From Omnitrophica WOR_2 bacterium GWF2_43_52 (lineage in GTDB: Bacteria; Omnitrophota; Gorgyraeia; Gygaellales; UBA12090), in assembly GCA_001805445.1 (NCBI GenBank), contig MHGF01000022.1, positions 10,613 to 74,612 on the forward strand: 64,000 nt of DNA, in the 5' to 3' direction. Numbering within the stretch: the stretch's first letter is position 1; the number at the start of each line of letters is the position of its first letter. The notes under the pieces are model-generated. The model saw only the letters and a list, made by a program, of their open reading frames with translations, was not told the DNA's origin and ran no database searches. Shown here one piece after another: positions 2,239 to 38,918 of the stretch. A program made the translations under genes and the position numbers.

Positions 2239-2973
2239 TCAAGCTATTTTGGTTAAAAGAAACATGAGAAAAATCCCAAATAAGAAGAAAGCTAAAGATA
2301 GGCCGGATCTTTTGGCATCTGTTTCCTTATGAATCTCGGGGACAAGGTCAGCGCTGGCTATATAGAGAAAACCTCCCGCGGTAAACGCAAGCAGTATATG
2401 AGAAAAACCTTCAATTGTATGAGAAATAAAATAGCCTAAGAGCGCTCCTCCAAAAGCAGTTAAAGCTGAGAGAAAATTATAAAAAAGCGCTTTTGCCTTG
2501 CTGAATCCTCCATACACCAATACCCCGAAATCCCCAAGCTCCTGAGGGATTTCATGGATAATCACAAGCAAGGTGGTAAAAAAACCTACCTGCGTGGAAA
2601 CGGAAAAACTTCCCGCTATGACCAAGCCGTCAATAAAATTATGCAGGCTGTCGCCGGCTATGTTAAGATAGGTAAAGGCGTGCTTATGGCAGACGCCGTC
2701 ATGGCAGTGGCGCCAAAAAAGGTATTTTTCCAGGAAAAAAAATAAAACAAAACCGCCCAATACAAAGATAAAAACAGCCTGCGTGCCGCCTTTTTCTATT
2801 GCCTCAGGGATAAGGTGGAGGAAAGCCCCACCCATCAGCGCGCCCGCGGAAAAGGCAACAAGCAAGAAAAGAATCGCGTTAAGAAACTTTTCCTTCATTG
2901 CCAAGGTCAAGACTCCGATAAGCGAAATAACGCTCACCGCAAATGTGCTTAATAAAATAAGTAAGAGTTGCAT
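2239..2973 (-). CDS. zupT: ZIP family zinc/metal transporter (ZupT-like)
   Basis: Multi-TM protein with the ZIP signature HEIPQELGDFGVL; start trimmed to the internal Met MQLLLILLS because upstream codons lie inside a repeat element. Confidence 0.8.
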   Translation of the reverse strand: MQLLLILLSTFAVSVISLIGVLTLAMKEKFLNAILFLLVAFSAGALMGGAFLHLIPEAIEKGGTQAVFIFVLGGFVLFFFLEKYLFWRHCHDGVCHKHAFTYLNIAGDSLHNFIDGLVIAGSFSVSTQVGFFTTLLVIIHEIPQELGDFGVLVYGGFSKAKALFYNFLSALTAFGGALLGYFISHTIEGFSHILLAFTAGGFLYIASADLVPEIHKETDAKRSGLSLAFFLFGIFLMFLLTKIA

Positions 2974-2979
2974 ACTTTT

Positions 2980-3075
2980 AACACGAATTAACACGAATTA
3001 CACACAAATGTACACGAATATAATTAAATAATTCGTGCCTGTTCGTGTTTGATTTGTGTGAATTCGTGTAAATTT
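2980..3075. repeat. Copy 1 of a roughly 90-bp imperfect palindrome built from ACACGAATT / AATTCGTGT and CACACAAAT words
   Basis: acacgaatta acacgaatta cacacaaatg tacacgaata | taattaaata | attcgtgcc tgttcgtgtt tgatttgtgtg aattcgtgta; right half is the inverted complement of the left half; 6 nt upstream of the zupT start. Confidence 0.8.
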
Positions 3076-3333
3076 TATTACCCTAGATTCGGTTTTCTGC
3101 CTTTATTAGCCTTCTTTGAACGCCAATTAAGTTTACCCCTTCTTTTACGCTTACTCATTGTGAGGACCGCTCCTTTCATGCAATAATTAATTTCTGGTAT
3201 AATTCTTGCCGTATTATAGCTTAGGCTTGCGAGAAAATCAACAACTATTGACAATAAGGAATCTTATGATTATAATATAATTAGAAATTTAAAGGTATAC
3301 TAGAGTTTTATACTAAGAAAGGAGCGATATTCG

Positions 3334-3639
3334 ATGAAAAAGGCTGTAGTTCTAACCATAATGATGCTTATGCCTCTTGCCATTATTAGTTGCACCACTA
3401 CTCAAAAAGGAGCGGCAGTAGGCGGATTAGGCGGGGCTGCCTTAGGTGGAATAATTGGCCATCAATCAGGACATGGCGGTGAAGGCGCGGCAATTGGAGC
3501 AGCGGTTGGCGCGATCTCAGGGGCGTTAGTCGGCGAGCAGATGGATAAAAAATTCTGCCCCGTATGCGGCGCTGAATACACCTCAGGGGTTACATACTGC
3601 TCAAAAGACGGCACAGAGCTAAAGTTAAAGCAAAAATAA
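3334..3639 (+). CDS. Small lipoprotein with glycine-zipper segment and C-terminal zinc-ribbon (C-x2-C ... C)
   Basis: Signal peptide plus lipobox-like IISC, Gly-rich GAAVGGLGGAALGGIIG, CPVCGAEYTSGVTYC. Confidence 0.5.
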   Translation: MKKAVVLTIMMLMPLAIISCTTTQKGAAVGGLGGAALGGIIGHQSGHGGEGAAIGAAVGAISGALVGEQMDKKFCPVCGAEYTSGVTYCSKDGTELKLKQK

Positions 3640-3725
3640 TTCTTTAAAGAAACTTCTTAAAGAAGTTTCTTTAAAGAAGCCAGGTTTTTTATTATTTTAA
3701 AAGGCCTGGCTTTTTTTATTTCCGA
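3640..3725. terminator. Bidirectional terminator region between convergent genes (tandem hairpins)
   Basis: Perfect 17-bp-arm palindrome ttctttaaagaaacttc ttaa gaagtttctttaaagaa followed by agccagg...cctggct hairpin and T7 run. Confidence 0.55.
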
Positions 3726-4319
3726 AACCGTGCTTGAGCCGGTTGTTACCGCGATTGCCTTTACCTTTGCATTGCGCGCGGTTTGAATATCAACGGTCAT
3801 ATCGCCGACAAAAAGCGTTTCTGAGTTTTTTGCTTTTAGCCTTTTCATAATGGTAATGATAATTTCCGGATCAGGTTTTCCCCGCGGGAGCTTGTCCGCG
3901 CATAAAATATAATCAAAAAACTCCTTGATTTTTAACTGCTTGACAATGATATTGGTAAATGCCGCAGGACGGTTAGAGGCAATAGCGATCTTAAAGCCAT
4001 GGCGTTTTAAATAGTGTAATAACCGCTTCGCGAAAGGAAGGAGCTTGGAATATTTTTTCAAGGAATCCCGATGGTGGCTGCGGTAAATCCTCAAGGCTTT
4101 CGTTATATCCTTTTCTTTGATAAACGCTGATACAAGCCTTGTATCTCCCCAGCCTACCGCCCTGCATATACGCCAAGGCTCTGCCTGAGGATACCCTAAC
4201 GTTTGAAGCGTAAAATTCATGCTTCTGACAATTGCTTCATAGGCATTAACCAAAGTGCCGTCAAGGTCAAAAATAACCACTCGTACACCGCGGGAATCCC
4301 GAACATTGCTGTTTTTCAT
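3657..4319 (-). CDS. HAD-superfamily hydrolase (phosphoglycolate-phosphatase-like)
   Basis: Motif I VVIFDLDGTLVN and C-terminal GDM..D motif typical of HAD hydrolases. Confidence 0.8.
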   Translation of the reverse strand: MKNSNVRDSRGVRVVIFDLDGTLVNAYEAIVRSMNFTLQTLGYPQAEPWRICRAVGWGDTRLVSAFIKEKDITKALRIYRSHHRDSLKKYSKLLPFAKRLLHYLKRHGFKIAIASNRPAAFTNIIVKQLKIKEFFDYILCADKLPRGKPDPEIIITIMKRLKAKNSETLFVGDMTVDIQTARNAKVKAIAVTTGSSTVSEIKKARPFKIIKNLASLKKLL

Positions 4320-4389
4320 AGAGTCATACTACCAATAAAAAACCCTTGGCATCTAAGAAGTTTTGCTTCATAGAATGCCAAGGGTAAAA

Positions 4390-4827
4390 CTATTGCGCTT
4401 TTTCTTCCGGGATTATCCCCATGAGCGGATCATCACTCATACCGGGAGTTTCAGGCATTGCTTCTATATTCTCGATAGAAATATTTCTTGCGATGTTCTG
4501 GCCATTGTTGAGCGCGTAATCAATACTCGCGGTATCGCCTATCTTAATTCCGCTTATATCCTTTACGCCTTCAAATTTTGTCTCCGCGTCTGTTATCAGG
4601 AGAAGCTCTTTTTCTTCATCAGTTTGATAGTCCATATAAATAACGGTTAACTTTGCTGCCTGCGAATCTATCTCCTTTACCTCACCCCAAACCCAGGAAA
4701 TTTCATCCGTTGCGGGCATACTCTCCGTTACCGCCTCTTCTACCGCTCTCGGCTCATGCTGGCAGAATCCTGCTCCCGCTAAAGAAAGTAACCCGATTAT
4801 CGTTAATGCGTACACCTTGGTTTTCAT
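4390..4827 (-). CDS. Secreted/periplasmic hypothetical protein (145 aa)
   Basis: ORF with signal peptide MKTKVYALTIIGLLSLAGAG; no family recognised. Confidence 0.45.
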   Translation of the reverse strand: MKTKVYALTIIGLLSLAGAGFCQHEPRAVEEAVTESMPATDEISWVWGEVKEIDSQAAKLTVIYMDYQTDEEKELLLITDAETKFEGVKDISGIKIGDTASIDYALNNGQNIARNISIENIEAMPETPGMSDDPLMGIIPEEKAQ

Positions 4828-4908
4828 ATTTATCCAGCCTCCTCTCTTTCTATAGAAGTACTATAAACAAATCTTATCTTATTGTCAAGGACAATCAGGA
4901 ATTCCCCT

Positions 4909-5511
4909 TTAGCCGGCATCCGGTTTGAGGATGCCCCCGGATATGATAAGCTTCATCCCATCTTCAATAGACATATCCATGAATTTTACATCCCGCTTAG
5001 CCACAAATACTAAAAACCCGCTCCATGGCCCCGGAGTTGTGCCTATAAGCACGTGAATAAGTTCTTCTCCTATTTTATCCTGTGCCTCTTTAAAACCCGT
5101 ATTGGTCATAAAACCAAGCGACCAAATACCTTTTGAAGGATATTCTATCAAAACGACTTTCTTAAAAGCCGCCTGATCCTTGGAAAAGAGAAAGCCGACA
5201 ATCTGTTTTGCCGAAGGATAAATCTGGCGTATTCCCGGAAGTTTGAGAAACCAGCCCTCAAAGGCATGCAAAACTTTTTTACCTAAGAAATGAGAAGCGA
5301 AAAATCCTGCTACCAAAACCAGGGTAATCCCTAAGACAATGCCTATCCCGGGGATAAAAAAACCGAACGTTTGTTCAAGATAGTTGTTGATAAACCCGCC
5401 GAAAATACCATCAATAAACTTAAAGATAAACGTGATAAGGTATACGGTAATAAAAAGGGGTAGAATCAACAGTAAGCCCGCGACAAAATAACGGCGTAAT
5501 TTTATCATCAT
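4909..5511 (-). CDS. DUF502 family membrane protein
   Basis: Two N-terminal TM helices then conserved ...KGIWSLGFMT...TTPGPWSGFLVFV...GGILKP region characteristic of DUF502. Confidence 0.6.
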   Translation of the reverse strand: MMIKLRRYFVAGLLLILPLFITVYLITFIFKFIDGIFGGFINNYLEQTFGFFIPGIGIVLGITLVLVAGFFASHFLGKKVLHAFEGWFLKLPGIRQIYPSAKQIVGFLFSKDQAAFKKVVLIEYPSKGIWSLGFMTNTGFKEAQDKIGEELIHVLIGTTPGPWSGFLVFVAKRDVKFMDMSIEDGMKLIISGGILKPDAG

Positions 5512-5748
5512 CTTTGTCTCCTCAGAATATATCGGTAACGGCACCCAAAAACTTGCCTGAGAAATCAGGAATGGTTACTTATAGATAAAAACTATGCCCT
5601 TCTCCTTTACCGGAATATATGAGAAAAGCATAGGGGCATACCTTTAAGGCCCACAAGAAATTAAAAAAATACCCTGCCCTTATCTTCTGTAAGCATTACT
5701 CTCACAAATAATAAAGGCAGGGTAAACAGCACGGTTAAAAACCCCTTG

Positions 5749-5967
5749 CTATTCTTTAGCTATAGCTAAAGCAATGACACCTGCTAAAATAAGGAATGGG
5801 CCTGCGCATCCTTTAATTAAGGTCCAGATTTCCCATCTCCATCTCACAACCAAATATGCCCCTAAAACCAAAAGAACAAGGCCTAATACGACTTTCAGGA
5901 CTGTTTTGAATATTTTGTCCGTATCTGTCTTTTCTGCTTCTTTTGTTTCCTTCACCTCTTCTGCCAT
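5749..5967 (-). CDS. Small membrane protein (72 aa), hypothetical
   Basis: Acidic N-terminus followed by two hydrophobic helices; lies downstream of repeat copy 2. Confidence 0.35.
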   Translation of the reverse strand: MAEEVKETKEAEKTDTDKIFKTVLKVVLGLVLLVLGAYLVVRWRWEIWTLIKGCAGPFLILAGVIALAIAKE

Positions 5968-6078
5968 TTTTCCACCTCCTTAATTTCGTTGTTTCGCGGT
6001 TACGTTGAATTATAATAAGAAAACAACTGCTCCCCCACCCTTCAGCTATAGTAGTTATCACTGAAAAAGCGTCTTTTA

Positions 6079-6172
6079 AACACGAATTCCCACGAATTAC
6101 ACACTAATCATCACGAATACAGCGACGAAGTAATTCGTGTGTATTTGTGTGTAATTTGTGCCTATTCGTGTA
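6079..6172. repeat. Copy 2 of the CACGAAT-word imperfect palindrome
   Basis: aacacgaattcccacgaattacacactaatcatcacgaatac...aattcgtgtgtatttgtgtgtaatttgtgcctattcgtgtaaaa. Confidence 0.8.
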
Positions 6173-6229
6173 AAATAAAGGTTTTTCAGCGGTAACTATA
6201 GTATATAGCTGAAGGCAACACAGGGACTT

Positions 6230-7141
6230 TTAATGTGGCCTGCTTTTCCATCTTCGGTGTATCCATCCCCATTCCTGAGGATACTTTTGTATGTATGACT
6301 CAATGATTGATGTAATCCTTTGTATGATAGCGTGTATTGTTTCATCATTGGTATCTTTTTTCTCAATACTTACTTCCGGTTCTATCATTAGTGTATGTGT
6401 ATCAGACGGCTGGCGTACAATAAACATAGGAAGTATCGGAGCCTGAGTTCTTAACGCGAGGATAGCCGGCCCTGTCGCGGTTGCTGCCTGCCTACCAAAG
6501 AAATCCACGAATACCCCGGCTGTACCGAAATTTTGGTCTAATTGGATAAAAAGCACCTCATTATTGCGTAGCGCCCTCAAAGAATTATCCACACACGCTT
6601 GGCGGGGCGTGCTATGAATAGAATGTATTCCCATCATAGCCCTGCGCTTCTCCAGAAAATCTTCCACCTTATCGTCTCGCATCTTGCGCAAAATCACGCT
6701 TACCTTATAGCCTTCCTGTCTTAATTTGGTAAGCGCTAAAGGGAAATTTCCGAAATGCGCGCTTACGGCAATGGCACCATTCCCCTTTAACAGGGCTTGA
6801 TCAAGATAGCATTTCCCTTCAATGGCCACCATTCCCTTTGCTCTTTGCGGGGCTTCAAGAATCGAAAGTAATTCAACACCGCTTTTTGCCATATTCTGGA
6901 AGCAATTTCGCGCGATGGTTACCTTTGCTTGCTTTGTTAAACGATTCTCAAAAGCAACCTCCAAACTCTCTAAAGCGATGTGCCGCTGTTTTACTGCTAT
7001 CCCATAAGCCATTGTGGCTATTGTCTGGGCAAAACCATAAAGCCATTTCCTGGGTAAACACCCAACTATCAAAGAACAAAGATATAATGATTCCCTGGCA
7101 AGCAAACGATTAAAACGCTTCCCAGCATCCTTTAAAGCCAT
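6230..7141 (-). CDS. lpxL: Lipid A biosynthesis lauroyl/myristoyl acyltransferase (LpxL/HtrB family)
   Basis: LPLAT HX4E-type motif AHFGNFP and C-terminal KYPQEWGWIHRRWK typical of LpxL. Confidence 0.75.
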   Translation of the reverse strand: MALKDAGKRFNRLLARESLYLCSLIVGCLPRKWLYGFAQTIATMAYGIAVKQRHIALESLEVAFENRLTKQAKVTIARNCFQNMAKSGVELLSILEAPQRAKGMVAIEGKCYLDQALLKGNGAIAVSAHFGNFPLALTKLRQEGYKVSVILRKMRDDKVEDFLEKRRAMMGIHSIHSTPRQACVDNSLRALRNNEVLFIQLDQNFGTAGVFVDFFGRQAATATGPAILALRTQAPILPMFIVRQPSDTHTLMIEPEVSIEKKDTNDETIHAIIQRITSIIESYIQKYPQEWGWIHRRWKSRPH

Positions 7142-9103: not shown

Positions 9104-9394
9104 CCGGGCTAAAGCCCGGGATCCTTTTCTTCTTGCCCCTTCGGGGCGGAATCCCGACCGACTCTTGTCTGTCCCGGCCGAAACGTCGGGACTCCATCCG
9201 CGCCCCTGAAGGCCGCGGTTTTGAAGCGTCGGGATAAATTAACCGATAGTTCACATTGGAATTGGTAGAAATTAATAGATATTTATGGAAATTGATTGCC
9301 TTTCTGTAACCTCTTTATATATAGCCGAACAATTAATTTCTATGAATCTCCACAAATTTCTATTAATTTCAACAAAGTTCCAGTTTCTTTTCAC

Positions 9395-11034
9395 TCATTT
9401 CTTGAAGATTATACCACAAAACCCTGCTAACGCACAACAGGCGAGGATAAAGATATCGCCCAGTCCGGTATAAAGGCTTCCTGTTGCGCGTAAAAAGACA
9501 TCCTGGAATTTTATTCCCGGAATAAAAATTTCTTTTCCGTTTTCTGAAACACGTGCCGTAATTTTACCAGTACCATCAATAAAACAGGATACTCCGGTAT
9601 TCGCCGCGCGCACCAAAGGAACCCTATTTTCAACCGCCCTAAACACCGAAGCGCTCAAATGCTGGAAAGGAGCGGATGTTTTCTGAAACCACGCGTCATT
9701 GGTGATAGTGACCAAAAATGCTGCTCCTTTCTTTACAAAGTTACGCGCCAATTCAGGAATAGTATCTTCAAAACAGATGAGAACGGAAAATATCGCAGAT
9801 CCTTGATTCTTGATTCTTGATGCTTGATTCGCATTATTCGTTGGCAATGAAAATAAAACATACTCCCTCCCGGAAGTAAAATCTCCAATAGGAACTATGG
9901 TTTCCAAGAATTTTAAGGAATTCTTTAAGGGAATATATTCTCCGAAAGGCACAAGGTGAAGCTTATCATAACGGCCCGAAAGCTTGCCTTCTTTATTTAT
10001 CAATAACGCGCTATTAAAATATTCCTCATTTTCTTTTACGACGGTACCAAACAATACAGGTATATTTGTTTTCTCCGCTAACGAAAAAATATGTTCTGCT
10101 ATCCATCTATCGTGCGTATCTCCATAAAATCCGGGGCTTGAAGCCTCCGGCCAGATAATAAGATCGGGATTTTCTAAGGCCGCTTTTTGTGTCAAGTGGG
10201 TATACCTCTCCAAAATGAGCGGCTGCGAACCCAAAGCCCATTTCAACTCTTGAGGAATATTACCCTGGATGAGGGAAAGCTTCACAACGAAGGGCGAAGG
10301 GCGAAGGGCGAAGGACGAAAGATACTGTAATTTTAAAAAACCATATAGTAGATAAATAAATAAAGTTATAATTGTAAAACATATATATCTTTTACTGATG
10401 GCCTTGTGCCCGCCACATTGCTTTGGCGGGCATCCGCCAATGCTTTGTGGCGGATGACTTGGTGACTTGGTGACCACGAAATTATATATCGTTACATTCA
10501 CCATCATTATCACAAACGATACCCCATATACTCCAAAGATATCGGCTATCTGAATTATGGGCAGATTAAGATATTGCGAATACCCCAAGAGCGCCCAGCC
10601 AAAGCCGGTCAACACATGCGAACGCACGTATTCAAGAATAACCCAGACGGAAGGAATAAGAAATAAGACGATGGACGATGCCTGCCTGCCTGTCGGCAAG
10701 GCAGGGACGAGGGACGAAATGATAATGCCGAAGAATCCGAAATATACAGCCAGATAGGCAATAAGGAGAATTTGGCCAAGCAGGGTAACGTGGATGAGCC
10801 AGTAAATAGTTATTGACCAAAAGATTATTCCGCAAAGATAAGATAAAAGAAAGGATTGGAGGCGGCTTTTATTCCGCAAGGCGAGAAATAAGGGAACAAA
10901 ACCAAACCAGGCAAGAATCCAAAGCCTGCCATCACAAAAAGGCAGGGCTGATACTATCCCCGATAAGATACTAAGAACTATACTCTTATATTTTTTGACT
11001 GGTGACGTGGTGACGTGGTGACGTGGTGACCTAT

Positions 11035-11050
<16 letters not shown>
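9395..11050 (-). CDS. lnt: Apolipoprotein N-acyltransferase Lnt, with a roughly 65-codon in-frame low-complexity insertion; true start probably downstream of 11050
   Basis: N-terminal polytopic membrane domain plus C-terminal CN-hydrolase domain ([10 protein letters not shown]...RAANTGVS); insertion at about 10265-10480; N-terminal 17 codons are encoded by an 8-mer tandem repeat. Confidence 0.8.
10994..11030. repeat. Tandem 8-mer repeat (GGTGACGT)x4 between secA stop and lnt
   Basis: gactggtgacgtggtgacgtggtgacgtggtgacc. Confidence 0.8.
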
Positions 11051-13947
<2,897 letters not shown>

Positions 13948-13950
13948 AGG

Positions 13951-14042
13951 AACACGAATAGGCACGAATCGCACACAAATCCACACAAATTGTCCCCGCA
14001 ATAATTCGCGGGAATTCGTGTGTAATGTGTGTTAATTCGTGT
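13951..14042. repeat. Copy 3 of the CACGAAT-word imperfect palindrome, abutting the secA start codon
   Basis: aacacgaataggcacgaatcgcacacaaatccacacaaatt...aattcgcgggaattcgtgtgtaatgtgtgttaattcgtgtt. Confidence 0.8.
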
Positions 14043-14049
14043 TGCTTAC

Positions 14050-15192: not shown

Positions 15193-15301
15193 GGTTATCA
15201 GAAAATCAGGGTATCAGGATTTGGGTATCGGGATATCAGGTTTGTTTTTAACCCCCTACCTTCCGATTCCCTGATCCCCAAATCCCAATCTCCTGATAAC
15301 C
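15193..15301. repeat. Long imperfect palindrome made of ATCAGG/CCTGAT words between pilT and prfB
   Basis: ggttatcagaaaatcagggtatcaggatttgggtatcgggatatcagg ...loop... ccgattccctgatccccaaatcccaatctcctgataacc. Confidence 0.7.
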
Positions 15302-15332
15302 TACTATCCGCTTTTAACATAACACTACCCCA

Positions 15333-16410: not shown

Positions 16411-16500
16411 CTCTTTGTAACCGCAGAAACGCAGAATATTTGTAAAATGCCTTGTTTGCAAAAAACGCAGAAAGCTGCTCTATGGCTTTTGCACACATCG
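16411..16500. repeat. Copy A of a roughly 95-bp direct repeat (GTAACCGCAGAARCGCAGAAT...TGGCTTTTGCAYACATC)
   Basis: Aligns at about 85% identity to 16596-16690; immediately upstream of pilT. Confidence 0.75.
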
Positions 16501-16595
16501 TTTTTCCTTAGCGGCTCTGCGAAAGCTACTATTTTTATTAATTACTTTGCGCGTCTGCGGTTACTATACCTCTTTTTTACGGTTTAGGCAAAATA

Positions 16596-21108: not shown

Positions 21109-21663
21109 CTACCAATTTTCAACCGTGCGTTCAATCACTCGGCGTGCCAGGTCACTAATAGCATCATCCAGGGCGGTTGCTTCGGTTTTGGCCTGAGCGC
21201 CGCTGGTAAAATAGGTGGCATCCCCCACAAAATTCGGTTCATCCCACACCGGATTTTCTTGGCCTTGCTTAGAGAGTGTCAGATGCATAATCAGGCTGAT
21301 ACGATATTCCGCGACATCCTCCTGATTATTCTCATAACGAAGCGCGTCCCGCTGATAATCAATAAGCTCACCTTTTAAGATTAAATCCGCGGCTTCCTTA
21401 TCCGCGATACGTAATCCGCCGTCAGACATAAAGCGGTTTATGACCGCGGTACGCAGATCATTCTCCATAAGAGGATGATACGTTCTATACCTTTGAGAGA
21501 GGCTCGTGGCATTTTCGGAAAGGATATCAACCTTATTGGCAAAGGGTTCGACATAGATTGTCTTCTCTACGCCTCGATATAAGGAATGGGTCGTATACCC
21601 GCAACCGAAAAGAGTAGAAAGTAGTAAGTAGTAAGTAGTAAGTAAGGAAAGTTTTGCCTTCAT
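21109..21663 (-). CDS. lptE: LptE-like LPS-assembly lipoprotein
   Basis: Lipoprotein signal LLSTLFGCG, size and position directly upstream of holA; start set at MKAKLSLL, which abuts the stop of the upstream TPR gene. Confidence 0.5.
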   Translation of the reverse strand: MKAKLSLLTTYYLLLSTLFGCGYTTHSLYRGVEKTIYVEPFANKVDILSENATSLSQRYRTYHPLMENDLRTAVINRFMSDGGLRIADKEAADLILKGELIDYQRDALRYENNQEDVAEYRISLIMHLTLSKQGQENPVWDEPNFVGDATYFTSGAQAKTEATALDDAISDLARRVIERTVENW

Positions 21664-22604
21664 TTTTTCTCCAATTCTTTTAATTTCTCCCGCGCCTGGG
21701 TAGCGCTTGCGCAATAGGAACAATTAGCCACTATTTCCCGATAATAAATACGGGCAGAGTCGTATTGTTTCTGTTTCTCATAGAATTCCGCTATTTTAAG
21801 GTTGCCCTCCGCCTCTTTTTCTTTCAGGCTGTCAATCTGGCTCTTGGCCTCTTCCTGCAGTGCTTCGTCAGGGTGTGATTTCACAAACTCCTCAAACTTT
21901 CGTTTTGCTTCCTGGGTCAATTCCTGGTCATATTCTGCTTTCGGGGCAATTCTATTAGCGCAATCGGCTACCTGAAACTTCGCGGGAGAAGACCACTCGT
22001 CTTCCGGATACGTAGTCACCACCTTTTCAAACTCATCCCGTGCCTCCTGATAACGGTTGAGATTCTTTAAGGTCATCCCCAAAAGATACTGGGCATGAGC
22101 GGCATGCTTTCCGTAAGGGGAATTCTCGACTACTTTCCGGAATATCTCAATAGAAGGGTTCTCAACCGGAAGTTCTAACCCCAGGGCCTTACGCTTCTCA
22201 CCTGACATAAATGCCTGCCCTATCGTAAGTTGACGCTCTATAATTTCATCTATCCGGGCGCTAAATGGATATTTATCAATGACTTTTTGATATGCCTTAT
22301 ACGCCTCGAAAGGTTTACGCGTAGCTTCAAAGGTTAACCCCAGGTAAAATTGCGCCTCAGAAGCCTCGTAAGCCTTAGGATAATACTTGATAAGTTTCTT
22401 GCATTCCTCAATGGCTTCCTGATATTTTGTTCTATCATAAAACTCCTGAATAAGCTTTAATTGCTCTTTGGGAGTGGGCTTAACGCTTTGTTTCGGATTT
22501 TTCCACTGGCTTGTCTTCGGGCTCCAGATCCAAAAACCATAACTTGGCCTCACCAACAACGAAAAAACGCTCAACCAGATAAGGGTAAAAATCACTTTTT
22601 TCAT
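21660..22604 (-). CDS. Secreted tetratricopeptide-repeat protein (BamD/YfiO-like)
   Basis: Signal peptide plus several TPR-like helical pairs. Confidence 0.45.
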   Translation of the reverse strand: MKKVIFTLIWLSVFSLLVRPSYGFWIWSPKTSQWKNPKQSVKPTPKEQLKLIQEFYDRTKYQEAIEECKKLIKYYPKAYEASEAQFYLGLTFEATRKPFEAYKAYQKVIDKYPFSARIDEIIERQLTIGQAFMSGEKRKALGLELPVENPSIEIFRKVVENSPYGKHAAHAQYLLGMTLKNLNRYQEARDEFEKVVTTYPEDEWSSPAKFQVADCANRIAPKAEYDQELTQEAKRKFEEFVKSHPDEALQEEAKSQIDSLKEKEAEGNLKIAEFYEKQKQYDSARIYYREIVANCSYCASATQAREKLKELEKK

Positions 22605-25520: not shown

Positions 25521-25597
25521 AATTATTACGTTAGACTATACCATTGCTTCTTTTCTGTCAAGCGAATCCTTAGAGAGTATTGAAAAAATACTTTTTT

Positions 25598-25682
25598 ACA
25601 CGAATTCTCACGAATTCAATGCCGAATTACCACAAATTGCCGGCGAGACACATTCGTGTAAATGTAACAAAAATTCGTGCTT
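25598..25682. repeat. Copy 4 of the CACGAAT-word imperfect palindrome, 76 nt upstream of the histidine-kinase start
   Basis: tacacgaattctcacgaattcaatgccgaattaccacaaatt...cattcgtgtaaatgtaacaaaaattcgtgct. Confidence 0.8.
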
Positions 25683-25747
25683 AACTTAATCTTTCGGCAA
25701 CCTCCTTAAAATCCCCCAGTAGTTACCACTTTTTCAGTGGTAACTAT

Positions 25748-27241
25748 TTATCGCGGTAAATAAAAATAAGCGCCAGGAATACTGCTTAACCAGTGCGTAA
25801 TCTTCAATAAAAACCCAAGCGAATAATTCGTAGTAGCGGCAATCGGTGCCGCGATGGCAGGGAAAATGAGCGCGGACAAGCCAAGGCTAAAGCCCAAAAC
25901 GATAATCAGGCTTGTATAAGGAACGATGATCAGGTTAGCCAACACGGTTATCGGGCTTACAATCCTAAAATAGTAGGCTATGGCCCCGGCAGTCACAAAC
26001 CATGCCGCCAAAGAAACAGAAAAACAGTTGATACTCCATTTCTTTACCTGCATCGCTGTTTTTGTAAGGCGGTTTACGGCGGAAGGCCTTTCGGGCACAG
26101 GATTGCCGCGCGCGCCTAAAAAACTTTCAATACGCCCTGACAATAACACTATCCCCAAAACACTCACAAAAGAAAGCTGAAACCCGATGTCAAAGAGCTG
26201 TAAGGGATTAGCGCCTAAAATAATAAGCGCTGCCAAACCAAGGCTATTGGTAATCTGAGATTCTCTTTCCATTAAATAACCGCTGAGCACAATAATTGCC
26301 ATAATCGTTGCCCGCACCACTGAGGCACTTGCTCCCACCGCATACATATGCATAATCAAAAGAGGTATGGTAAGATAATAACGCGGTTTTCGCTTTATTC
26401 CTAAAGCCTTCAAAATAATTAAAACAACAAACGCAACGATTCCCACGTTAAAACCGCTTATGGCAATAATATGGCTTGTGCCTGTTCGCACAAAAGCGTC
26501 TCGGATAGCGTGAGGAAAATTCTGGCGTTCCCCCAGGATGATTCCCGAAAGGATACGGCTGTTTTCAGGCCAAAGGTAGGCTTCAAATATACTTTTAAAT
26601 GTATGTTTTGCCTTAAGGGCAAACGCCTTTACTCTATTGCTTTGCGCCTTTTGTAAAAAAACAATCCCATCTTCTTTGGTAACACTCAAGATATAGGCTA
26701 TCCCCTGGTTTTTAAGATACTCCCGATACGAAAAGCTTTTCCCGCCAAAATTAAACGGCCTATACAGCCTTCCCTCTAAAATCAAGCTATCCCCATAAGC
26801 AAATTTTTCTTTTTTAAACACATTGACGACGATGTATCCTTTCATTTCATAGTCTCTGCCTGCGACGATAAGTTTTTTACTGTTGAGAATAAAACTTACT
26901 TTGCGAGCGCTATAGGCAGGATCATTTTCAATGATTCCCTCTATGTGAACAGGCAGCGAGTGTTGTAGATTTAAAGAGGCGTTGTGCCGGTAATGCGGGA
27001 AAAGATAATTATTACAATGTAAGGCGCCTAACCCAAAACAAAACACTAAAAAAATAAAGGAAAAGAGGGCGTCTTTCTCCTTACTCCATACTGCAATCAC
27101 CAAAGAAAGGGCGCACCAAATAAACCATACAAAAAATGGGATAGCGCTAGCGTAAGCTATCACTATCCCAAGGATAAAAAATACCGCTACAGCGGTAAGA
27201 ATGGGAATTTGGTTTAAATGAGCGGTAATTTTATTCAACAA
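25748..27241 (-). CDS. comEC: ComEC/Rec2-family DNA internalisation channel protein (no metallo-beta-lactamase domain)
   Basis: DUF4131-like N-terminus, competence domain with HIIAISGFNVG; protein ends without an MBL fold. Confidence 0.75.
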   Translation of the reverse strand: MLNKITAHLNQIPILTAVAVFFILGIVIAYASAIPFFVWFIWCALSLVIAVWSKEKDALFSFIFLVFCFGLGALHCNNYLFPHYRHNASLNLQHSLPVHIEGIIENDPAYSARKVSFILNSKKLIVAGRDYEMKGYIVVNVFKKEKFAYGDSLILEGRLYRPFNFGGKSFSYREYLKNQGIAYILSVTKEDGIVFLQKAQSNRVKAFALKAKHTFKSIFEAYLWPENSRILSGIILGERQNFPHAIRDAFVRTGTSHIIAISGFNVGIVAFVVLIILKALGIKRKPRYYLTIPLLIMHMYAVGASASVVRATIMAIIVLSGYLMERESQITNSLGLAALIILGANPLQLFDIGFQLSFVSVLGIVLLSGRIESFLGARGNPVPERPSAVNRLTKTAMQVKKWSINCFSVSLAAWFVTAGAIAYYFRIVSPITVLANLIIVPYTSLIIVLGFSLGLSALIFPAIAAPIAATTNYSLGFLLKITHWLSSIPGAYFYLPR

Positions 27242-28685: not shown

Positions 28686-31118
28686 CTATACTACGATACT
28701 GACCAATTTTGAGGGGACGACAATGATATTTTTAACCTGTTTTCCCTGAAGCCAGGGAATAAGCTTTTCGTCACTGAGCACACGCTTTTTAAGCTTTTCT
28801 TCATCGATATCCGAAGCCACCTCTATTTTAAAACGCACCTTGCCGTTTACCTGGACTACCATCGTTACCATCGCTTCAACCAATAAAGTAGGGTCATGCA
28901 GAGGCCATTGGCTTTTAAAAATGCTTTCCTCGTTGCCTAAAATCTGCCAAAGCTCTTCCGCAAAATGCGGCATAAAAGGGCTTAACATAAGGACAAGCTT
29001 TGAAAAAACCTCCTTATCCGCGCCCAACTGATAGATGGCATTCACTAACTCCATAAGGCTGGCGATCGCGGTATTGAATTTGAAAGCAGCGACGTCATCT
29101 GAAACTTTTTTTATAGTCTTATGTAAGATACGTATAAGGTGAGGCTCCGGCGTATCTTTCAAATTCTCCTGGATGCGCCAGACGCGGTTTAAAAATTTAA
29201 ACGCCCCTTCAATCCCGCGGTCATCCCACTCAAGCTCGGTTTCCGGTGGCGCGGCAAAAAGAATAAACAACCGTAAGGAGTCCGCGCCGTATTTTTGAAT
29301 GATTGAGTCAGGGTCAACGATATTGCCTTTTGACTTTGACATTACTTCGCCATCTTTTAACACCATGCCTTGGGTAAGCAGGCATCGAAATGGCTCATCG
29401 TGGCCGCTGCAATTATCGGCTGCGGATGGAAAATCTACCATTCCTAAATCCCTAAAAAACTTGGTAAAAAAACGGGAATAAAGCAGATGCAAAATCGCAT
29501 GCTCAATCCCTCCGATATATTGGTCAACCGGCATCCAATAGCGAGCTTCCTGCGTATTAAATGGGGCAGAATCATCTTTTGGTGAGCAAAATCGTAAGAA
29601 ATACCATGAAGAATCAAAAAAAGTAGCCATAGTATCGGTTTCCCGACGGGCAGGAGCATCGCATTGTGGGCAGGCCACATTCACAAATGACTCAACCTTT
29701 CCTAAGGGGCTGCCGCCTTCTCCGGTAAACGGGGCGTCCGCCGGTAACACAACCGGCAAATCTTTATACGGCACGCCAACCACGCCGCAAGCCTTGCAAT
29801 AAATCATAGGAATGGGTGTGCCCCAATAGCGCTGGCGCGAAATCAACCAATCCCGCAGGCGCCAATGAGTTACAATTTTGCCCATCCCTTTATCCTGCAT
29901 CCACTGGGCAATTTTTGTTTTGGCTTCTTGATTCGGCAAGCCGTTAAACTCACCTGAATTAACCTGCAGGCCATCACCCGCATAGGCTCCAGTCATCTCA
30001 TCTGGTGACTTGGTGACTTGGTGACTTGGTGACTTTATCACAATTCGCATCGGCAGATGATGTTCCTTGGCAAAAAGAAAATCCCGCTGATCATGAGTCG
30101 GCACCGCCATAATTGCCCCTGTGCCGTATTCCATCAATACATAATCCGCAATCCAGATGGGGATAACCTCATTATTCACCGGATTAACGCAGAATGTGCC
30201 GGTAAAAAGCCCTTCTTTCTTAACATCTTCCTTAACCCTGGCTATTTTACTTTCCTTGGATACCTTATCGATAAAGTCCAGAACGTCCTTCTCCTGAGGT
30301 TTCCCCTTAATCAACTCCTTGACCAAAGGATGTTCCGGCGCAAGGACCACATAGGTTGCCCCAAAAATCGTATCTGCCCGCGTGGTAAAAACCGTAATGA
30401 CGGTATCATTTTCTTTTAAACGAAAATATATTTCTACCCCCTGGCTTTTTCCTATCCAATTCTTCTGCATAGCGATAACCCGCTCAGGCCAGTGTTGCAG
30501 CCGGTTTAAGTCATCCAAAAGACGCTCTTTATAGTCGGTAATTTTTAGAAACCACTGTTCCAGCTCTTTTTGCTGGACAGGGTTATGACAGCGCCAGCAT
30601 TCTCCGTCAATAACCTCTTCATTGGCCAAGGTCGTCTGGCACGAAGGGCACCAGTTGACGCTTGAGGCCTTTTGGTAGGCAAGGCCGCGCTCATACATCT
30701 TCAGGAATATCCACTGATTCCACCTGTAGTAAGTACTATCGCAGGTTGAGAGCTCCCTCTCCCAATCATAGGAAAAACCCATTTTCTCTAATTCTATCTT
30801 CATCCAGTCAATACACTTATGGGTCCAGCTATCGGGCTTGGTATTATTTTTGATGGCGGCATTTTCCGCCGGCTGGCCAAAGGCGTCAAAACCCATAGGA
30901 TGCAGCACCGAATAACCCTCAAGCCATTTATAGCGGCTATAGACATCGCCAATGGTATAGTTACGCACGTGGCCCATATGGATTTTCCCGGACGGATAAG
31001 GAAACATCTCCAGGCAATAGAACTTTTTCTTTTCCGGAGCGTGCGAGGCCTTAAAAATCTGCTTCTCCTGCCAATAGCACTGCCACTTCTCTTCTATTTC
31101 TTTAAATGAATAGCTCAT
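28686..31118 (-). CDS. leuS: Leucyl-tRNA synthetase, containing an in-frame 8-mer tandem-repeat insertion
   Basis: HIGH (HMGHVRNY) and KMSKS (VMSKSKGN) motifs, CP1 editing domain; repeat (GGTGACTT)x4 at 30004-30035 encodes [11 protein letters not shown]. Confidence 0.95.
30004..30035. repeat. Tandem 8-mer repeat (GGTGACTT)x4 inside leuS
   Basis: ggtgacttggtgacttggtgacttggtgactt; same 8-mer family as 10455-10478 and 10994-11030. Confidence 0.85.
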
Positions 31119-31511: not shown

Positions 31512-31680
31512 CGTTTTTATCGTGTAGTGCTCCGTGACAAAAAGTTATGTCACCGTCGAGTACACCGTGACATTAATTCTTGCAAAATAACCAAACATCA
31601 ATTTCCAATAACCAAATAATAACCAATGTGCCAATTATCAAACGATTTGGTTATTGGTGATTGATACTCAATCATTTTAG

Positions 31681-35565: not shown

Positions 35566-36831
35566 TTATTTAGAGAAAATGCCATGGTCAACAAGCAATG
35601 GTGTTATAGAAGCGTCAACTAAACATCCGACAATTGCGCCCTTGCCTTCTTCAAATAGTTTTCGCGCCTCAATATTGTAATTTTCTCGAAGCTTTTTTAA
35701 GTCGGAGACATTTTCATTCCTTTTTAAATCAGTTTCGAGTTTAGCCATAAAATTAACAAGGTTATCGTAATTTAAACCTAATAAAAGCGTATTTCCTAAA
35801 ATAAAATCTTTAACTTCTATATGTTTCGCCGTTGCCGCAATCCATTCTTTTTGCGAAATATGATTTGCCCCTACGGCAAAGAGGGCACAAATATACCCCT
35901 CTGCGAGGGTTGCCTTTAGTGAATATATTGAACTTTTCTCTAAGTCATTTTCATCTAACAGTTTTTCTAATGCTAATATCCGCGCGTAGCTCTCTTCGTA
36001 CTTCTTTTCATTCGCTATTTTAGAAATATCTTGTGTTTCTTTAAGAGCATACTTCATGATTTTTTCCTTATCGATATTATTCTTTGCAGTATCGCCATTT
36101 TCGCGAATTGGAGGAAATACTTTCTCCGTGAAATCTACTATCTCTAATTTCCACCATAAATGATTTTTATGGTCGCCGAACTTACGGTAACGCTTACTCG
36201 GATAGTAATAGTCGTGGTCTGAAGGCGATATAGATTTACTATGAAATTGCTCCAAATTCTTAAAATCAGTTATGTTCAATCGAAATAAAATCGCGTCCAA
36301 CGGAATTTCCCGAGTTATAAGTGAGCTTATCTCGTCATATCTTCCTCGATTTAAATGTATTATCAATTCATTCGTTCTAAATAAATATGAGCAGGCCAGG
36401 GATTCCGTTAAAAACGGAACTCCTTCTAAAGCTTTTTGTTCTTCGTCAGAATAAAGGTCTGAAAAACAAAATTCATAGAAAGTCAGAGGATTTAGATAAT
36501 TCCCATTCGCATCTTCTATTTCAAAATAATCATTGAATTTTTCATCTTCATACGTCCAGATTTTTGCTCGACAGTAGTTATTCGCGTATAATTCCATTTT
36601 ATATGTAACACTGAATTTCTTTTTAGATATTTTCTCTACCGCTGAATCATCGTAGCTAGTTTTATTTTTAATCGTCTTTAGATAAAATGCTGGAAGTGGG
36701 GTAAGAGAAATGCTAACAATCTGATCTATCCCAGTAGGATTTACTATTTTTTCTATTAATGGACATTTGCAATGTAAACACGCTTTAATATTATCATCAT
36801 ATGATTTGTTGCATTTAGGACACTGTTTCAT
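35566..36831 (-). CDS. Hypothetical protein with N-terminal zinc ribbon (first gene of cassette operon)
   Basis: CPKCNKSY...CLHCKC at N-terminus; GAGGAGG SD upstream. Confidence 0.4.
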   Translation of the reverse strand: MKQCPKCNKSYDDNIKACLHCKCPLIEKIVNPTGIDQIVSISLTPLPAFYLKTIKNKTSYDDSAVEKISKKKFSVTYKMELYANNYCRAKIWTYEDEKFNDYFEIEDANGNYLNPLTFYEFCFSDLYSDEEQKALEGVPFLTESLACSYLFRTNELIIHLNRGRYDEISSLITREIPLDAILFRLNITDFKNLEQFHSKSISPSDHDYYYPSKRYRKFGDHKNHLWWKLEIVDFTEKVFPPIRENGDTAKNNIDKEKIMKYALKETQDISKIANEKKYEESYARILALEKLLDENDLEKSSIYSLKATLAEGYICALFAVGANHISQKEWIAATAKHIEVKDFILGNTLLLGLNYDNLVNFMAKLETDLKRNENVSDLKKLRENYNIEARKLFEEGKGAIVGCLVDASITPLLVDHGIFSK

Positions 36832-36867
36832 GGTTACCTCCTCACATCTCTTTAGTTAACTTAAAAA

Positions 36868-36912
36868 ACAAAAACCTCCGCCACTACTGGCGAAGGTTTT
36901 AATTATTTTTAC
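36868..36912 (-). terminator. Rho-independent terminator after the XRE regulator gene
   Basis: ccttcgccagtagtggcggagg hairpin followed by tttttgtttttt on the minus strand. Confidence 0.55.
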
Positions 36913-36991
36913 GTGGCAGTTCCCCCTTCAAACATACCACTTTACTTATACTTAATCGTTGTCTTACATATAGCATAAATTTACCGCCGAG

Positions 36992-37189
36992 TCAAACAAT
37001 TTTTGCCAAGTCATCAAGCGAAATGCCTAAAGATTTTGCTATGCCAACCATAGTGGAAAAAGTAGGATTTTTTGACTCCCCAGATTCAATCTTCACAATC
37101 GTGTTAAAAGATACATCTGCCAAGCAAGCCAGTTTTTCTTGAGATAAACCTTTTTTTAGCCTTAATTCTCTAATTTTCTTAGCTGACAT
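36992..37189 (-). CDS. XRE-family helix-turn-helix transcriptional regulator (65 aa)
   Basis: LRLKKGLSQEKLACLADVSFNTIVKIESG... HTH_3 pattern. Confidence 0.85.
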   Translation of the reverse strand: MSAKKIRELRLKKGLSQEKLACLADVSFNTIVKIESGESKNPTFSTMVGIAKSLGISLDDLAKIV

Positions 37190-37337
37190 TCTCTGACTTT
37201 ATATACTTTTACATATAAACTTTTATTAATAGCGTTTGCCCTATAGCGAATTTAATATACCACATTTTGAGCTTATTTTCCAATCAAAATCGGCAGCAAG
37301 ATGGGCATCAAGAAGCATTGATTTTTGCTTACTTGTA

Positions 37338-37362
37338 TTAAATAAAGCCTAACTTTATTTAA
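37338..37362. promoter_or_regulatory. Perfect 10-bp-arm palindrome, candidate operator for the XRE regulator
   Basis: ttaaataaag cctaa ctttatttaa in the XRE promoter region. Confidence 0.35.
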
Positions 37363-37392
37363 TAAACACGCTATGAAATTATCCCGGACTAT

Positions 37393-37440
37393 AAAATTTT
37401 TGCACGAAAACAGCTCTTTTTTACGTCTTATATAGTAGGA
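37393..37440 (+). promoter_or_regulatory. Conserved promoter-like motif copy C1 (AAAATTTTTGCACGAAAA-N13-ACGTCTTATATAGTAGG)
   Basis: Near-identical to copies at 39032-39080 and 41574-41623; diverged copy at 43104-43150. Confidence 0.5.
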
Positions 37441-37502
37441 GTATAGTGGTAAAAACTATAACCATTTATGCCAAAAAACGCACTATATGAGGAGGGGAAT
37501 AA

Positions 37503-38207
37503 ATGTTCAAAAAATATTCAAAGCGGATAAAACAAAGAATACGCAATTTAAGAAGCCGAGGCTGGTCATTGGGAGAAATTGGTTTAAAAACGGGCATACC
37601 TAAGAATACCCTGTCTGAATGGGTCAGAGATATTCAGCTTTCTAAGGCTCAAGAAAAACGAATAAAAGAAAAGGAAATAGCATCAGCGGCCATTGGAAGA
37701 GATATAGCCAGAAAAATATTGCGTGAAAAAATTGATAAATGGAAGGAAAAAATACGAGAAAAGGTAAAACATTTTGGCAAATCAGCTTTACTAAATCAAG
37801 AAATGGGAAAACTTGTATGTGGATTATTATATCTGTGCGAAGGCTCTAAGTATCCTTCTACCAGATGTTTGATTTTCGGTAACTCCGATCCTAGAATAAT
37901 CAAGGCGTTCCTTAATTTATTAAGGAACTATTTCCGTATTCGAGAGGACAAGTTACGCTGCAGAATCACTCCTCGTTGGGACCAAAACATTAATAAGTTG
38001 CAGATTTTCTGGTCAAATATTACTAAGATTCCTATTGAACAATTCTACCACACAATACCTGACAAGCGTACCAAAGGCAAGACTACTGGAAAGGAAGATT
38101 ATCAAGGAGTTTGCGTTATATATTATTGCGATACCTCATTACAATTTGAGTTACAATCAATCGGTGAAGCAGTAATTAAAGGTGTAGGGGGGAAATCGAA
38201 AAGTTAG
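37503..38207 (+). CDS. HTH-domain protein (234 aa), possibly a degenerate homing-endonuclease or transposase-like protein
   Basis: N-terminal HTH (GWSLGEIGLKTGIPKNTLSEW); weak LAGLIDADG-like GLLYLCEGS; abuts tRNA-Ala. Confidence 0.4.
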   Translation: MFKKYSKRIKQRIRNLRSRGWSLGEIGLKTGIPKNTLSEWVRDIQLSKAQEKRIKEKEIASAAIGRDIARKILREKIDKWKEKIREKVKHFGKSALLNQEMGKLVCGLLYLCEGSKYPSTRCLIFGNSDPRIIKAFLNLLRNYFRIREDKLRCRITPRWDQNINKLQIFWSNITKIPIEQFYHTIPDKRTKGKTTGKEDYQGVCVIYYCDTSLQFELQSIGEAVIKGVGGKSKS

Positions 38208-38280
38208 TGGAGCTGGAGGGGATCGAACCCTCTGCCTCTTCCATGCCATGGAAGCGCTCTCCCAGGTGAGCTACAGCCCC
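38208..38280 (-). tRNA. tRNA-Ala (anticodon GGC)
   Basis: Reverse complement folds as GGGGCTG/CAGCTCC acceptor with G3:U70, D-stem GCTC/GAGC, anticodon loop AT-GGC-AT, T-loop TTCGATC; no encoded CCA. Confidence 0.85.
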
Positions 38281-38346
38281 ATAAAAGCAGATTTAAGAAC
38301 TAAGAATTAAGATCTAAAAAAAACTATTTTTAAAACGACAAGTTAA

Positions 38347-38739: not shown

Positions 38740-38789
38740 TTGGCTTTTCTCCTTTTTTAGAAGAGTAATTATACCCCAGCTTTCTTTGT

Positions 38790-38818
38790 TTGACAAATAT
38801 TATTTTAGGTGCTATATT
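38790..38818 (+). promoter_or_regulatory. Consensus sigma-70 promoter driving tRNA-Leu
   Basis: TTGACA - 17 nt - TATATT, 17 nt upstream of the tRNA 5' end. Confidence 0.5.
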
Positions 38819-38835
38819 TTACTCATTCTTCCTTT

Positions 38836-38918
38836 GCTGGAGTGGTGGAATGGCATACACGCCAGTCTCAAAAACTGGTGGGGTCACACCCGTGTGGGTT
38901 CAACTCCCACCTCCAGCA
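38836..38918 (+). tRNA. tRNA-Leu (anticodon CAA), type II with long variable arm
   Basis: GCTGGAG/CTCCAGC acceptor stem, anticodon stem CCAGT/ACTGG with loop CT-CAA-AA, variable arm GGGGTCACACCC, T-arm GTGGG TTCAACT CCCAC, discriminator A; embedded in spurious N-terminal extension of ORF 38681..39613. Confidence 0.75.

Follow-up and report, generated by a model that had tools for sequence, protein, structure and literature searches.

CACGAAT palindromes at operon junctions of an Omnitrophota bacterium as probable gene-less copies of the terminal repeats of a GxxExxY nuclease cassette

The stretch of 64,000 nucleotides analysed here in full (the window) is part of contig MHGF01000022.1 (positions 10,613 to 74,612 of the forward strand; assembly GCA_001805445.1) of Omnitrophica WOR_2 bacterium GWF2_43_52, and it contains five imperfect palindromes of 89-108 nt built from the 7-nt word CACGAAT. 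We consider it probable (roughly 0.7) that these palindromes are gene-less, non-autonomous copies, similar to miniature inverted-repeat transposable elements (MITEs), of the inverted repeats at the two ends of a small selfish cassette. The full form of this cassette consists of 2-3 phased CAC[G/A/T][A/G]AT words 9-10 nt apart, a gene for a PD-(D/E)XK nuclease of ~125 aa and the same words inverted. For this genome the element itself is an ordinary selfish repeat, while the parent mini-cassette, found across phyla and in phages, appears to be undescribed.

Five palindromes built from one word

CACGAAT occurs 24 times on the two strands of the window, against 6.29 +/- 2.49 times in shuffled sequences (none of 100 shuffles reached 24), and 21 of the 24 matches lie inside five palindromic clusters. 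The original prediction had announced five copies, and all of them are present at or near the places that it gave; copy 5 really extends over 56420-56527 and not over 56474-56525. The copies, with the values of z for their predicted folds and their neighbouring genes, are as follows (ORF, open reading frame).

Copy 1, 2978-3072: left arm 2981-3019 (ACACGAAT, ACACGAAT, ACACAAAT, ACACGAAT), loop 3020-3030, right arm 3031-3069; z -6.8 and -7.0; between a basic ORF of 26 aa (stop 3078-3080) and a ZIP transporter gene (ATG 2973)
Copy 2, 6077-6174: left arm 6080-6118, right arm 6133-6171; z -6.3 and -9.2; within the loop of an outer hairpin of a different family (6052-6198, TAGTTATCACTGAAAAAG...TTTTTCAGCGGTAACTA); between the stop of a lipid A acyltransferase gene (6230) and the start of a 72-aa ORF (6061)
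Copy 3, 13949-14045: left arm 13952-13990, right arm 14004-14042; z -5.7 and -4.6; occupies the whole junction between the prfB stop and the secA ATG (13947)
Copy 4, degenerate, 25595-25683: left arm 25598-25637, right arm 25652-25680; z only -2.0 and -2.7; between the stop of a comEC-like gene (25748) and the start of a histidine kinase gene (25520), with a separate GTTAC-family hairpin at 25721-25750
Copy 5, 56420-56527: left arm 56422-56482 (ACTACGAATTTACGCGAATT...), interrupted by a small nested hairpin at 56445-56463 (GCCTGCTTAGCAAGCAGGC), right arm 56483-56522; z -7.1 and -7.3; the right arm provides the last 11 codons and stop (56490-56492) of an alpha/beta hydrolase ORF, and the amidohydrolase ATG lies at 56413

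The words are phased at about 10 nt (period 10 in Tandem Repeats Finder) and, read on the + strand, start at offsets 3/13/24/34 in copies 1-4, which gives four words per arm at steps of 10/11/10 nt. Together with CACGAAT, the arms contain the variants CACAAAT and CACTAAT, the same word set that is used by the cassette arms, and the polarity is identical in five of five copies, with CACNAAT words first and ATTNGTG words after. A long hairpin is predicted on either strand for every copy (z from -4.6 to -9.2 in copies 1, 2, 3 and 5), with loops of 0-14 nt that hold no ORF. The pairwise scores for the orientation of the five copies relative to each other are mixed.

A nuclease gene between the same arms

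A genome collection (one genome per species) was scanned for the pattern CACGAATTNNCACGAATT, with at least 119 loci as the result; about 280 hits are expected by chance for a 16-base pattern in 1.2e12 bases, so that single matches mean little. Among the loci listed, 84 have three or more clustered words and 47 are palindromes of the ++/-- type. Such arrays come from Flavobacterium, Bacteroidales, Saprospiraceae, Cloacimonadota, Planctomycetota, Verrucomicrobiota, Acidobacteriota, Chloroflexota, Calditrichia, Nitrospirota and others, and the pattern is also present on 78 phage contigs, 51 of which have at least three words.

At locus L033, 444 nt separate the two arms, and an ORF of 124 aa between them matches Pfam PDDEXK_3 (E = 4e-40). 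A tblastn search with this ORF found seven homologues among the word-selected loci (7 of the 119 listed), all seven placed directly between or against CACNAAT arms, at distances within 70 nt. They reach 130-150 bits on TIGR04256 "GxxExxY" (cutoff 35), and both the D...ExK triad and the GxxExxY motif are invariant in the homologues. To remove the bias of a selection by word, a second set of loci was then selected on the protein only: of 600 metagenome candidates, 576 were confirmed and 80 kept (L215-L294), and the 73 that had both flanks entered the arm count. Two or more words stand to the left of the gene in 69 of the 73 and two or more inverted words to the right in 70, both conditions being found together in 67, while wrong polarity on both sides is seen in six loci. 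Word density amounts to 20.6 per kb in the flanks of the nuclease genes compared with 1.5 per kb elsewhere.

The termini of the cassette are symmetric, (A/T)(G/A)A-CAC...GTG-T(C/T)(T/A), where the hyphens mark the limits of the element; position -1 is A in 76% of cases, and position -2 is G in 65% and A in 30%. The outer termini of window copies 1-4 (AA-CAC three times, then TA-CAC) agree with this form. The ORF is tightly packed between the arms: the median distance between stop and arm is 7.5 nt, and the ATG often follows its arm after 2-8 nt. Several cassettes fit exactly into the gap that separates a stop codon from the start of a valS-like gene (ATG), a geometry identical to that of prfB and secA in the window. 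Cassettes of several metagenomic genomes (L219, L223, L227, L239 and L291) share one junction, between a gene ending in ...DSMEFALLKK and its stop codon and a valS-like gene starting with MSEIPKAYEPQSVEDKWY; the arm words at this junction have diverged (CACGAAT vs CACGGAT or CGCGGAT), which suggests an old insertion that has been vertically kept.

The word variant (A or G at position 5) is independent of GC content (0.374 vs 0.377) and follows the relatedness of the nucleases: the nearest neighbour has the same variant in 62 of 77 cases, compared with 55% expected, a value reached by 22 of 500 permutations. A phage homologue with 38% identity has CACGGAT arms.

The GxxExxY protein has been listed as a protein of unknown function with multiple transfers among divisions and viruses (PMC3424549), and our literature search for GxxExxY, PDDEXK_3 and TIGR04256 found only that table entry and one incidental mention. 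Sequence searches with the nuclease in PADLOC, PHROGs and PDB gave only faint Cas4-like or endonuclease matches, with no solved structure and no defence system. Two candidate pairs, L273/L287 and L278/L293, had been considered as the same cassette in different flanks; they proved to be partly orthologous or tandem and were not used as proof of transposition. The opposed arms of L141, 3.4 kb apart, belong to two distinct elements with phage portal and terminase genes between them, and the ORFs enclosed by arms in L204 and L131 have no Pfam match.

The window copies as probable gene-less shells

The window copies share with the GxxExxY cassettes their words, their polarity and the terminal A-CAC, with a phasing that is close to, though not the same as, that of the cassettes, and they have no ORF inside; on these grounds we read them as gene-less shells of such cassettes. 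When a profile was built only from the arms of protein-selected cassettes, the window copies were the top seven matches in the window. Additionally, they have several of the properties by which MITEs are recognized. They are short, non-coding, multi-copy units with inverted repeats (five copies of 89-108 nt), and these repeats are held in common with a gene-carrying element (the arms on 67 of 73 GxxExxY genes), the product of which is a candidate mobiliser. They also differ in presence at orthologous sites, as three copies of the window have no counterpart in three related genomes (see below).

Several observations weigh against this interpretation. The individual profile matches of the window copies are weak (E = 0.04-1.8), and their arms have four words at 10-11 nt where cassette arms have 2-3 words at 9-10 nt. 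By tblastn, no GxxExxY gene was found in the window, in the 10 kb beyond its left end (~74 kb altogether) or in any fetched Omnitrophota locus; consequently, the copies are classed as gene-less derivatives and not as full cassettes, and a mobilising enzyme within this genome remains putative. No target-site duplication was found: neither the termini of 60 cassettes nor the copy pairs show a consistent direct repeat, with the relatives being too diverged for an empty site at base resolution. No clean pair of filled and empty sites was obtained for the CACGAAT element, the two candidate pairs being partly orthologous or tandem, as stated above. The mutual identity of the five copies is ~59% of aligned columns, from which it follows that none is a recent insertion and that the copies are old. 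Finally, ~10% of the nuclease genes are flanked by complete palindromes and not by split arms.

This last observation would also fit a model in which the palindrome is either an element in its own right or a structure of the host, the GxxExxY gene is a homing parasite that inserts in its loop, and the window copies are unoccupied targets. Some PD-(D/E)XK enzymes are homing endonucleases, and gene-less palindromes outnumber gene-bearing ones, with only seven of the latter among the 119 word-selected loci listed. Some genes, moreover, have complete palindromes on one or both sides (L215, L275, L081 and L105), and other hairpins are nested inside palindromes (window copy 5 and L167). By contrast, 92% of the protein-selected genes have split arms flush with the ORF and conserved outer termini, and no gene-bearing and gene-less pair was found at one orthologous site. 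The inheritance of the word variant together with the protein lineage is expected for a single unit, although it would also be possible for a specialised parasite and its target. We regard the homing model as rather unlikely, while noting that the present data could not separate it from the model of terminal inverted repeats.

If the copies are indeed shells of terminal inverted repeats, the unit would move, or would once have moved, as DNA, and the nuclease would be the likely enzyme that reads the words, being supplied in trans in the case of the shells. The paired arms of an inserted copy may then fold it out of the polycistronic transcript as a hairpin, which would bring the upstream stop codon and the downstream start codon together and would thereby make insertion at tight operon junctions tolerable. 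The closest documented analogue for such a tolerated insertion would be the ORF-carrying intervening sequence (IVS) of 23S rRNA that is excised by RNase III (PMC4990558). More tentatively, and as a proposal that we hold to be possible rather than probable, the GxxExxY protein could be the sole enzyme of an unrecognised class of mobile elements. It would read ends made of phased 7-nt words, and these self-pairing ends would sit silently at operon stop/start junctions, possibly also in rRNA, while the element spreads across phyla and phages and leaves shells behind.

Orthologous junctions and gene context

The host is a metagenome-assembled genome, and the SecA of the window is encoded on GCA_003499645.1. 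Three relatives have kept the gene order of the window (L124, L125 and L127, with SecA identities of 82%, 75% and 73%; the homologues belong to Candidatus Omnitrophota), while assemblies L121-L123, L206 and L207 are effectively identical to the window and thus uninformative. Within the 23-kb syntenic block, the window has three CACGAAT arrays and L124, L125 and L127 have none, the sites upstream of secA, the ZIP gene and the 72-aa ORF all lacking them. The comparison with related genomes that had been proposed along with the original prediction thus reveals a difference in presence, its direction (insertion or loss) being inferred. The gap between prfB and secA is particularly instructive: in the window it consists of 102 nt with the CACGAAT palindrome, in L124 of 108 nt of GCGTCTT/ACGCACGACGTACA words and in L127 of 93 nt of CTAAATCC words (two unrelated hairpins), and in L125 of 1 nt (TAA-A-ATG). 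As the orthologous gaps differ completely, the CACGAAT element is not a conserved control site of these genes, and, judging from these sequences, tight operon junctions have been filled independently by genome-specific palindromes.

It had been claimed that each copy lies directly upstream of a minus-strand gene. The proximity is real, since the outermost CACGAAT word is 8 nt from the start codon of the ZIP gene, 19 nt from that of the 72-aa ORF, 5 nt from that of secA, 78 nt from that of the histidine kinase gene and ~8 nt from that of the amidohydrolase gene. The orientation, by contrast, has no meaning, as nearly all ORFs of the window are on the minus strand, so that being upstream of a minus-strand gene carries no information, and each copy is equally downstream of one (for instance, 8 nt past the stop of the 26-aa ORF and 7 nt past that of prfB). 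No Shine-Dalgarno sequence is found between the outermost word and the ATG codons of the ZIP, secA and amidohydrolase genes. Beside copy 1, the strongly basic 26-aa ORF (MSKRKRRGKLNWRSKKANKGRKPNLG, 3078-3158, minus strand), which is outside the list of 100-aa ORFs, is preceded by a good promoter-like site (3241-3213) and is kept upstream of the ZIP gene in L124 and L125.

The overlaps with annotated frames that the original prediction described are geometrically correct. The GTG/TTG-extended ORFs 2239-2994 and 11035-14001 enter copies 1 and 3, and the hydrolase ORF 56490-57317 ends 11 codons inside copy 5. The true starts are ATG 2973 (ZIP), ATG 13947 (secA) and ATG 56413 (amidohydrolase), and the longer GTG/TTG ORFs have arisen in the ORF track as artefacts; in one database, SecA is called with 983 aa instead of 970 aa.

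An operator array of a global regulator had also been suggested; a binding-site array for such a regulator or for a nucleoid protein, controlling the downstream genes, would be in keeping with words that are conserved as sequence rather than as base pairs, with phasing of about one helical turn and with the location of the copies 5-78 nt from start codons. Nevertheless, the copies are absent from the orthologous junctions of the three syntenic relatives, and the element occurs on phage contigs too and goes with a nuclease cassette, not with a regulon. Among the arrays that, across phyla, could be classified by gene context (n = 52), 40 lie between co-directional, eight between convergent and only four between divergent genes; six arrays are within predicted ORFs. 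Promoter-like sites in a scan of the window show neither enrichment nor coincidence with the copies, and the genes next to the five copies have no common function. We find the operator reading scarcely credible, and the copies are not regulators of ZIP, secA or other neighbours.

The word rather than the fold is conserved

A different role for the host would be that of an RNA element (terminator, processing site or mRNA stabiliser) selected for the structure of the transcript. The predicted folds are strong and, across phyla, the element is 3'-proximal or inter-cistronic, as would be expected in that case. However, which of the two strands folds better shows no dependence on the direction of transcription (21 vs 19, p = 0.29), and of ~47 pairs with a variant word (CACAAAT, CACTAAT) only one has a compensating change in the opposite arm: it is the word that is conserved, and not the base pairing. 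In the pooled arrays, words are spaced by 9 nt in 75 cases and by 10 nt in 128, and tight arm pairs have the order CACGAAT to ATTCGTG in 73 cases and the reverse order in two, a strict polarity that is unexpected for an element defined by structure only. There is no U-tract, and the T-run on the 5' side and the A-run on the 3' side are the reverse of a terminator; copies within one metagenome-assembled genome or one phage contig have in common only the palindrome and this T-run/A-run extension.

The searches of Rfam 15 point in the same direction. No family reached its gathering score at the window copies, none was found permissively in 2900-6300 and none in 18 loci from other phyla, the only matches being generic, miRNA-precursor-like and far under threshold. 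All in all, selection of the palindromes as host RNA structures is highly improbable. No description of the element was found in the literature searched for the word and for repeats of Flavobacterium or Omnitrophota, and a BLAST search of a plasmid collection gave one partial, unannotated match. An apparent asymmetry of the arms in other phyla, with CACGAAT only in one arm and variants in the other, was discarded as an ascertainment bias, because the search pattern required two perfect words.

The RAYT gene of the window and its own repeat

The window also contains an intact gene for a RAYT (a tyrosine transposase associated with repetitive extragenic palindromes, REPs), and it may be asked whether the palindromes are similar to REPINs, that is, REP-derived hairpins, mobilised by this enzyme. 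The relevant features are the following.

62309-62977, minus strand: RAYT-like gene
62280-62297 and 62991-63008: hairpins flanking the RAYT-like gene
45391-45408: third copy of the same hairpin

The protein matches Pfam Y1_Tnp (32 bits, cutoff 23) and NCBIfam REP_Tyr_transpos (E = 8e-17) and has the HUH and Tyr motifs; the lack of a target-site duplication would fit chemistry of the HUH type, and in L210 an arm of three ATTCGTG words is found ~75 nt downstream from a homologue of the RAYT. On the other hand, the RAYT gene of the window and four of four homologues are flanked on both sides by a different, GC-rich hairpin (GCACC/CCACC-N5-GGTGC/GGTGG, then ...ATGGTTT) and not by CACGAAT arms, which associate with GxxExxY genes instead, and no RAYT homologue was found in the word-selected loci. 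Mobilisation of the CACGAAT palindromes by the RAYT is therefore very unlikely, being largely refuted by what flanks the RAYT genes. The flanking hairpin can be written as GCACCCCCGCGGTGCGTA(G)ATGGTTT and has the same layout in the four homologues (Omnitrophota, Scalindua and Tritonobacter); its outer stem (TAACCA...TGGTT) resembles the AATAACCAA word family, described below.

Comparison with known repeats

The original prediction had placed the palindromes close to ERIC (enterobacterial repetitive intergenic consensus) or MITE-like units. This holds in kind, as the element is non-coding, dispersed, absent at orthologous sites of relatives and has arms in common with a gene-carrying cassette, but it is probably not ERIC itself. 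Like ERIC, also called intergenic repeat unit (IRU), it is an imperfect palindrome of ~100 nt in intergenic regions that are presumably transcribed; ERIC, however, is defined by an enterobacterial consensus and has no known partner gene and no word-array build, and the present element has its host among the Omnitrophota. The likeness to MITEs such as Correia, RUP and Nezha is closer: these are also short and non-coding, with several diverged intergenic copies that are absent at the orthologous sites of relatives, and their inverted-repeat ends are common to a rarer gene-carrying element. Unlike in MITEs, the partner encodes only the ~125-aa PD-(D/E)XK nuclease and no transposase of the DDE, HUH, serine or tyrosine type, each inverted repeat is made up of 2-4 phased words of 7 nt, a target-site duplication is not seen, and transposition is inferred.

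Tn7, Mu and IS21 have ends with several direct copies of a short binding word that is inverted in the other end; their sites measure ~20 bp, their ends are far apart and their transposases are of the DDE type. The CACGAAT element resembles them in having direct words in one end and inverted words in the other, the binding of the GxxExxY protein to these words being putative.

Two further systems have been described in ways that allow a comparison. REPs are single hairpins of 20-40 nt with a GTAG or CGTC tag, and their partner is a HUH transposase of the Y1 type (Di Nocera et al. 2013, PMC3733652). The REP/REPIN-RAYT systems are similar to ours in that the palindromic extragenic repeats lie mostly between co-directional and convergent genes, in having one small, dedicated enzyme gene with the repeats on its flanks, and in the lack of target duplication. 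By contrast, the units described here are word arrays of ~90 nt without the GTAG/CGTC tag and have a PD-(D/E)XK nuclease, and the RAYT of the window has its own REP. The IVS of Coxiella 23S rRNA is a selfish, horizontally acquired insert in which a stem encloses a small ORF, and this stem allows RNase III to excise it from the host transcript, so that insertion is tolerated (PMC4990558). The IVS differs from our element, which has conserved words, in being located in rRNA helices and in having an ORF of a different family (S23p); excision of the CACGAAT element from mRNA would be an extension by analogy.

Other repeats and features of the window

Other long intergenic hairpins of the same build and with other words, of ~60-170 nt and from at least four further families, fill the window. 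They are listed here together with further intergenic palindromes.

9256-9376: GAAATT-word hairpin
15193-15302: GGTATCAG-word hairpin
31584-31678 and 47108-47280: AATAACCAA-word hairpins
49145-49329 and 25721-25750: GTTAC(T/C)A-word hairpins
6052-6198 and 16417-16564: further intergenic palindromes

If the more tentative proposal made above for the GxxExxY protein were extended, these word-built palindromes (GGTATCAG, AATAACCAA, GAAATT and GTTAC) might likewise be shells, either of comparable cassettes or of the RAYT system. The GAAATT family is also present in L124, at a non-orthologous site, and at the same gaps the relatives have still different words (CCTAAACC, GCGTCTT); there is no known partner gene for the other word families. 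A near-perfect hairpin, GGGACAGACACTAAT...ATTGGTGTCTGTCCC, is found at 59903-59963 of the window and at 16044-16100 of L295 (~4 kb beyond the left end); it contains a single CACTAAT/CACCAAT word, has a cassette-like terminus (AGA-CAC) and may be a minimal relative of the CACGAAT element. Also in L295, at 13712-13955 (~2 kb beyond the left end and upstream of a FUR-family gene), there is a CGCGAAT/GCGGAT run in one orientation and with no inverted partner.

Among the remaining features, a structured, GC-rich intergenic repeat of ~160 nt has two copies that are ~95% identical (52232-52390 and 57781-57940). A leader-like motif, AATTCGC-[hairpin]-GCTCATTGAGGAGG, occurs twice in 55185-55486 of the window as well as in L124 (19350-19456) and L125 (18417-18582); it ends in the Shine-Dalgarno sequence of the downstream gene and has no Rfam match. 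The Rfam family DUF3800-V RNA is found at 50886-50985 (+; 70.9 bits, gathering 37.4), adjoining a DUF3800 gene (50990-51631), with the RNA called on the opposite strand. The region 9104-9230, between lnt and an M23 peptidase gene, is GC-rich and has several hairpins and no Rfam match; the start of the peptidase is disputed between gene callers (180 aa vs 149 aa).

An island of low GC (0.36) at ~36800-44800 contains plus-strand genes (ORF6N domains, an HTH_3 repressor and unknown ORFs), tRNA-Ala and tRNA-Leu, with an ECF (extracytoplasmic function) sigma/anti-sigma pair at its edge, and is probably an integrated element. Perfect or near-perfect tandem repeats of 7-8 nt with 4-5 units are located at 9798-9830, 10288-10319, 10996-11030, 21613-21644 and 30003-30035. 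Their units are GATTCTT, CGAAGGG, TGACGTGG, AGTAGTA and TGGTGACT, and most are inside ORFs (lnt, leucyl-tRNA synthetase); the AGTAGTA run falls in a long ORF that starts with TTG (21109-21723), on the 5' side of the LptE gene as called.

Significance

For annotation, the palindromes call for caution, as they create false N-terminal extensions (the SecA of 983 aa given for one of 970 aa) and can donate C-terminal codons (copy 5), and they are not to be read as regulatory sites. Beyond this genome, the cassette accounts for a repeat for which neither Rfam nor the literature searched has an entry and which turns up repeatedly in Flavobacterium, Bacteroidales, Planctomycetota, Verrucomicrobiota, Omnitrophota, Acidobacteriota, Chloroflexota and phage contigs. 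Additionally, TIGR04256/PF13366, a large family that has members in bacteria, archaea and viruses and no assigned function, gains a concrete, testable role and a candidate DNA substrate.

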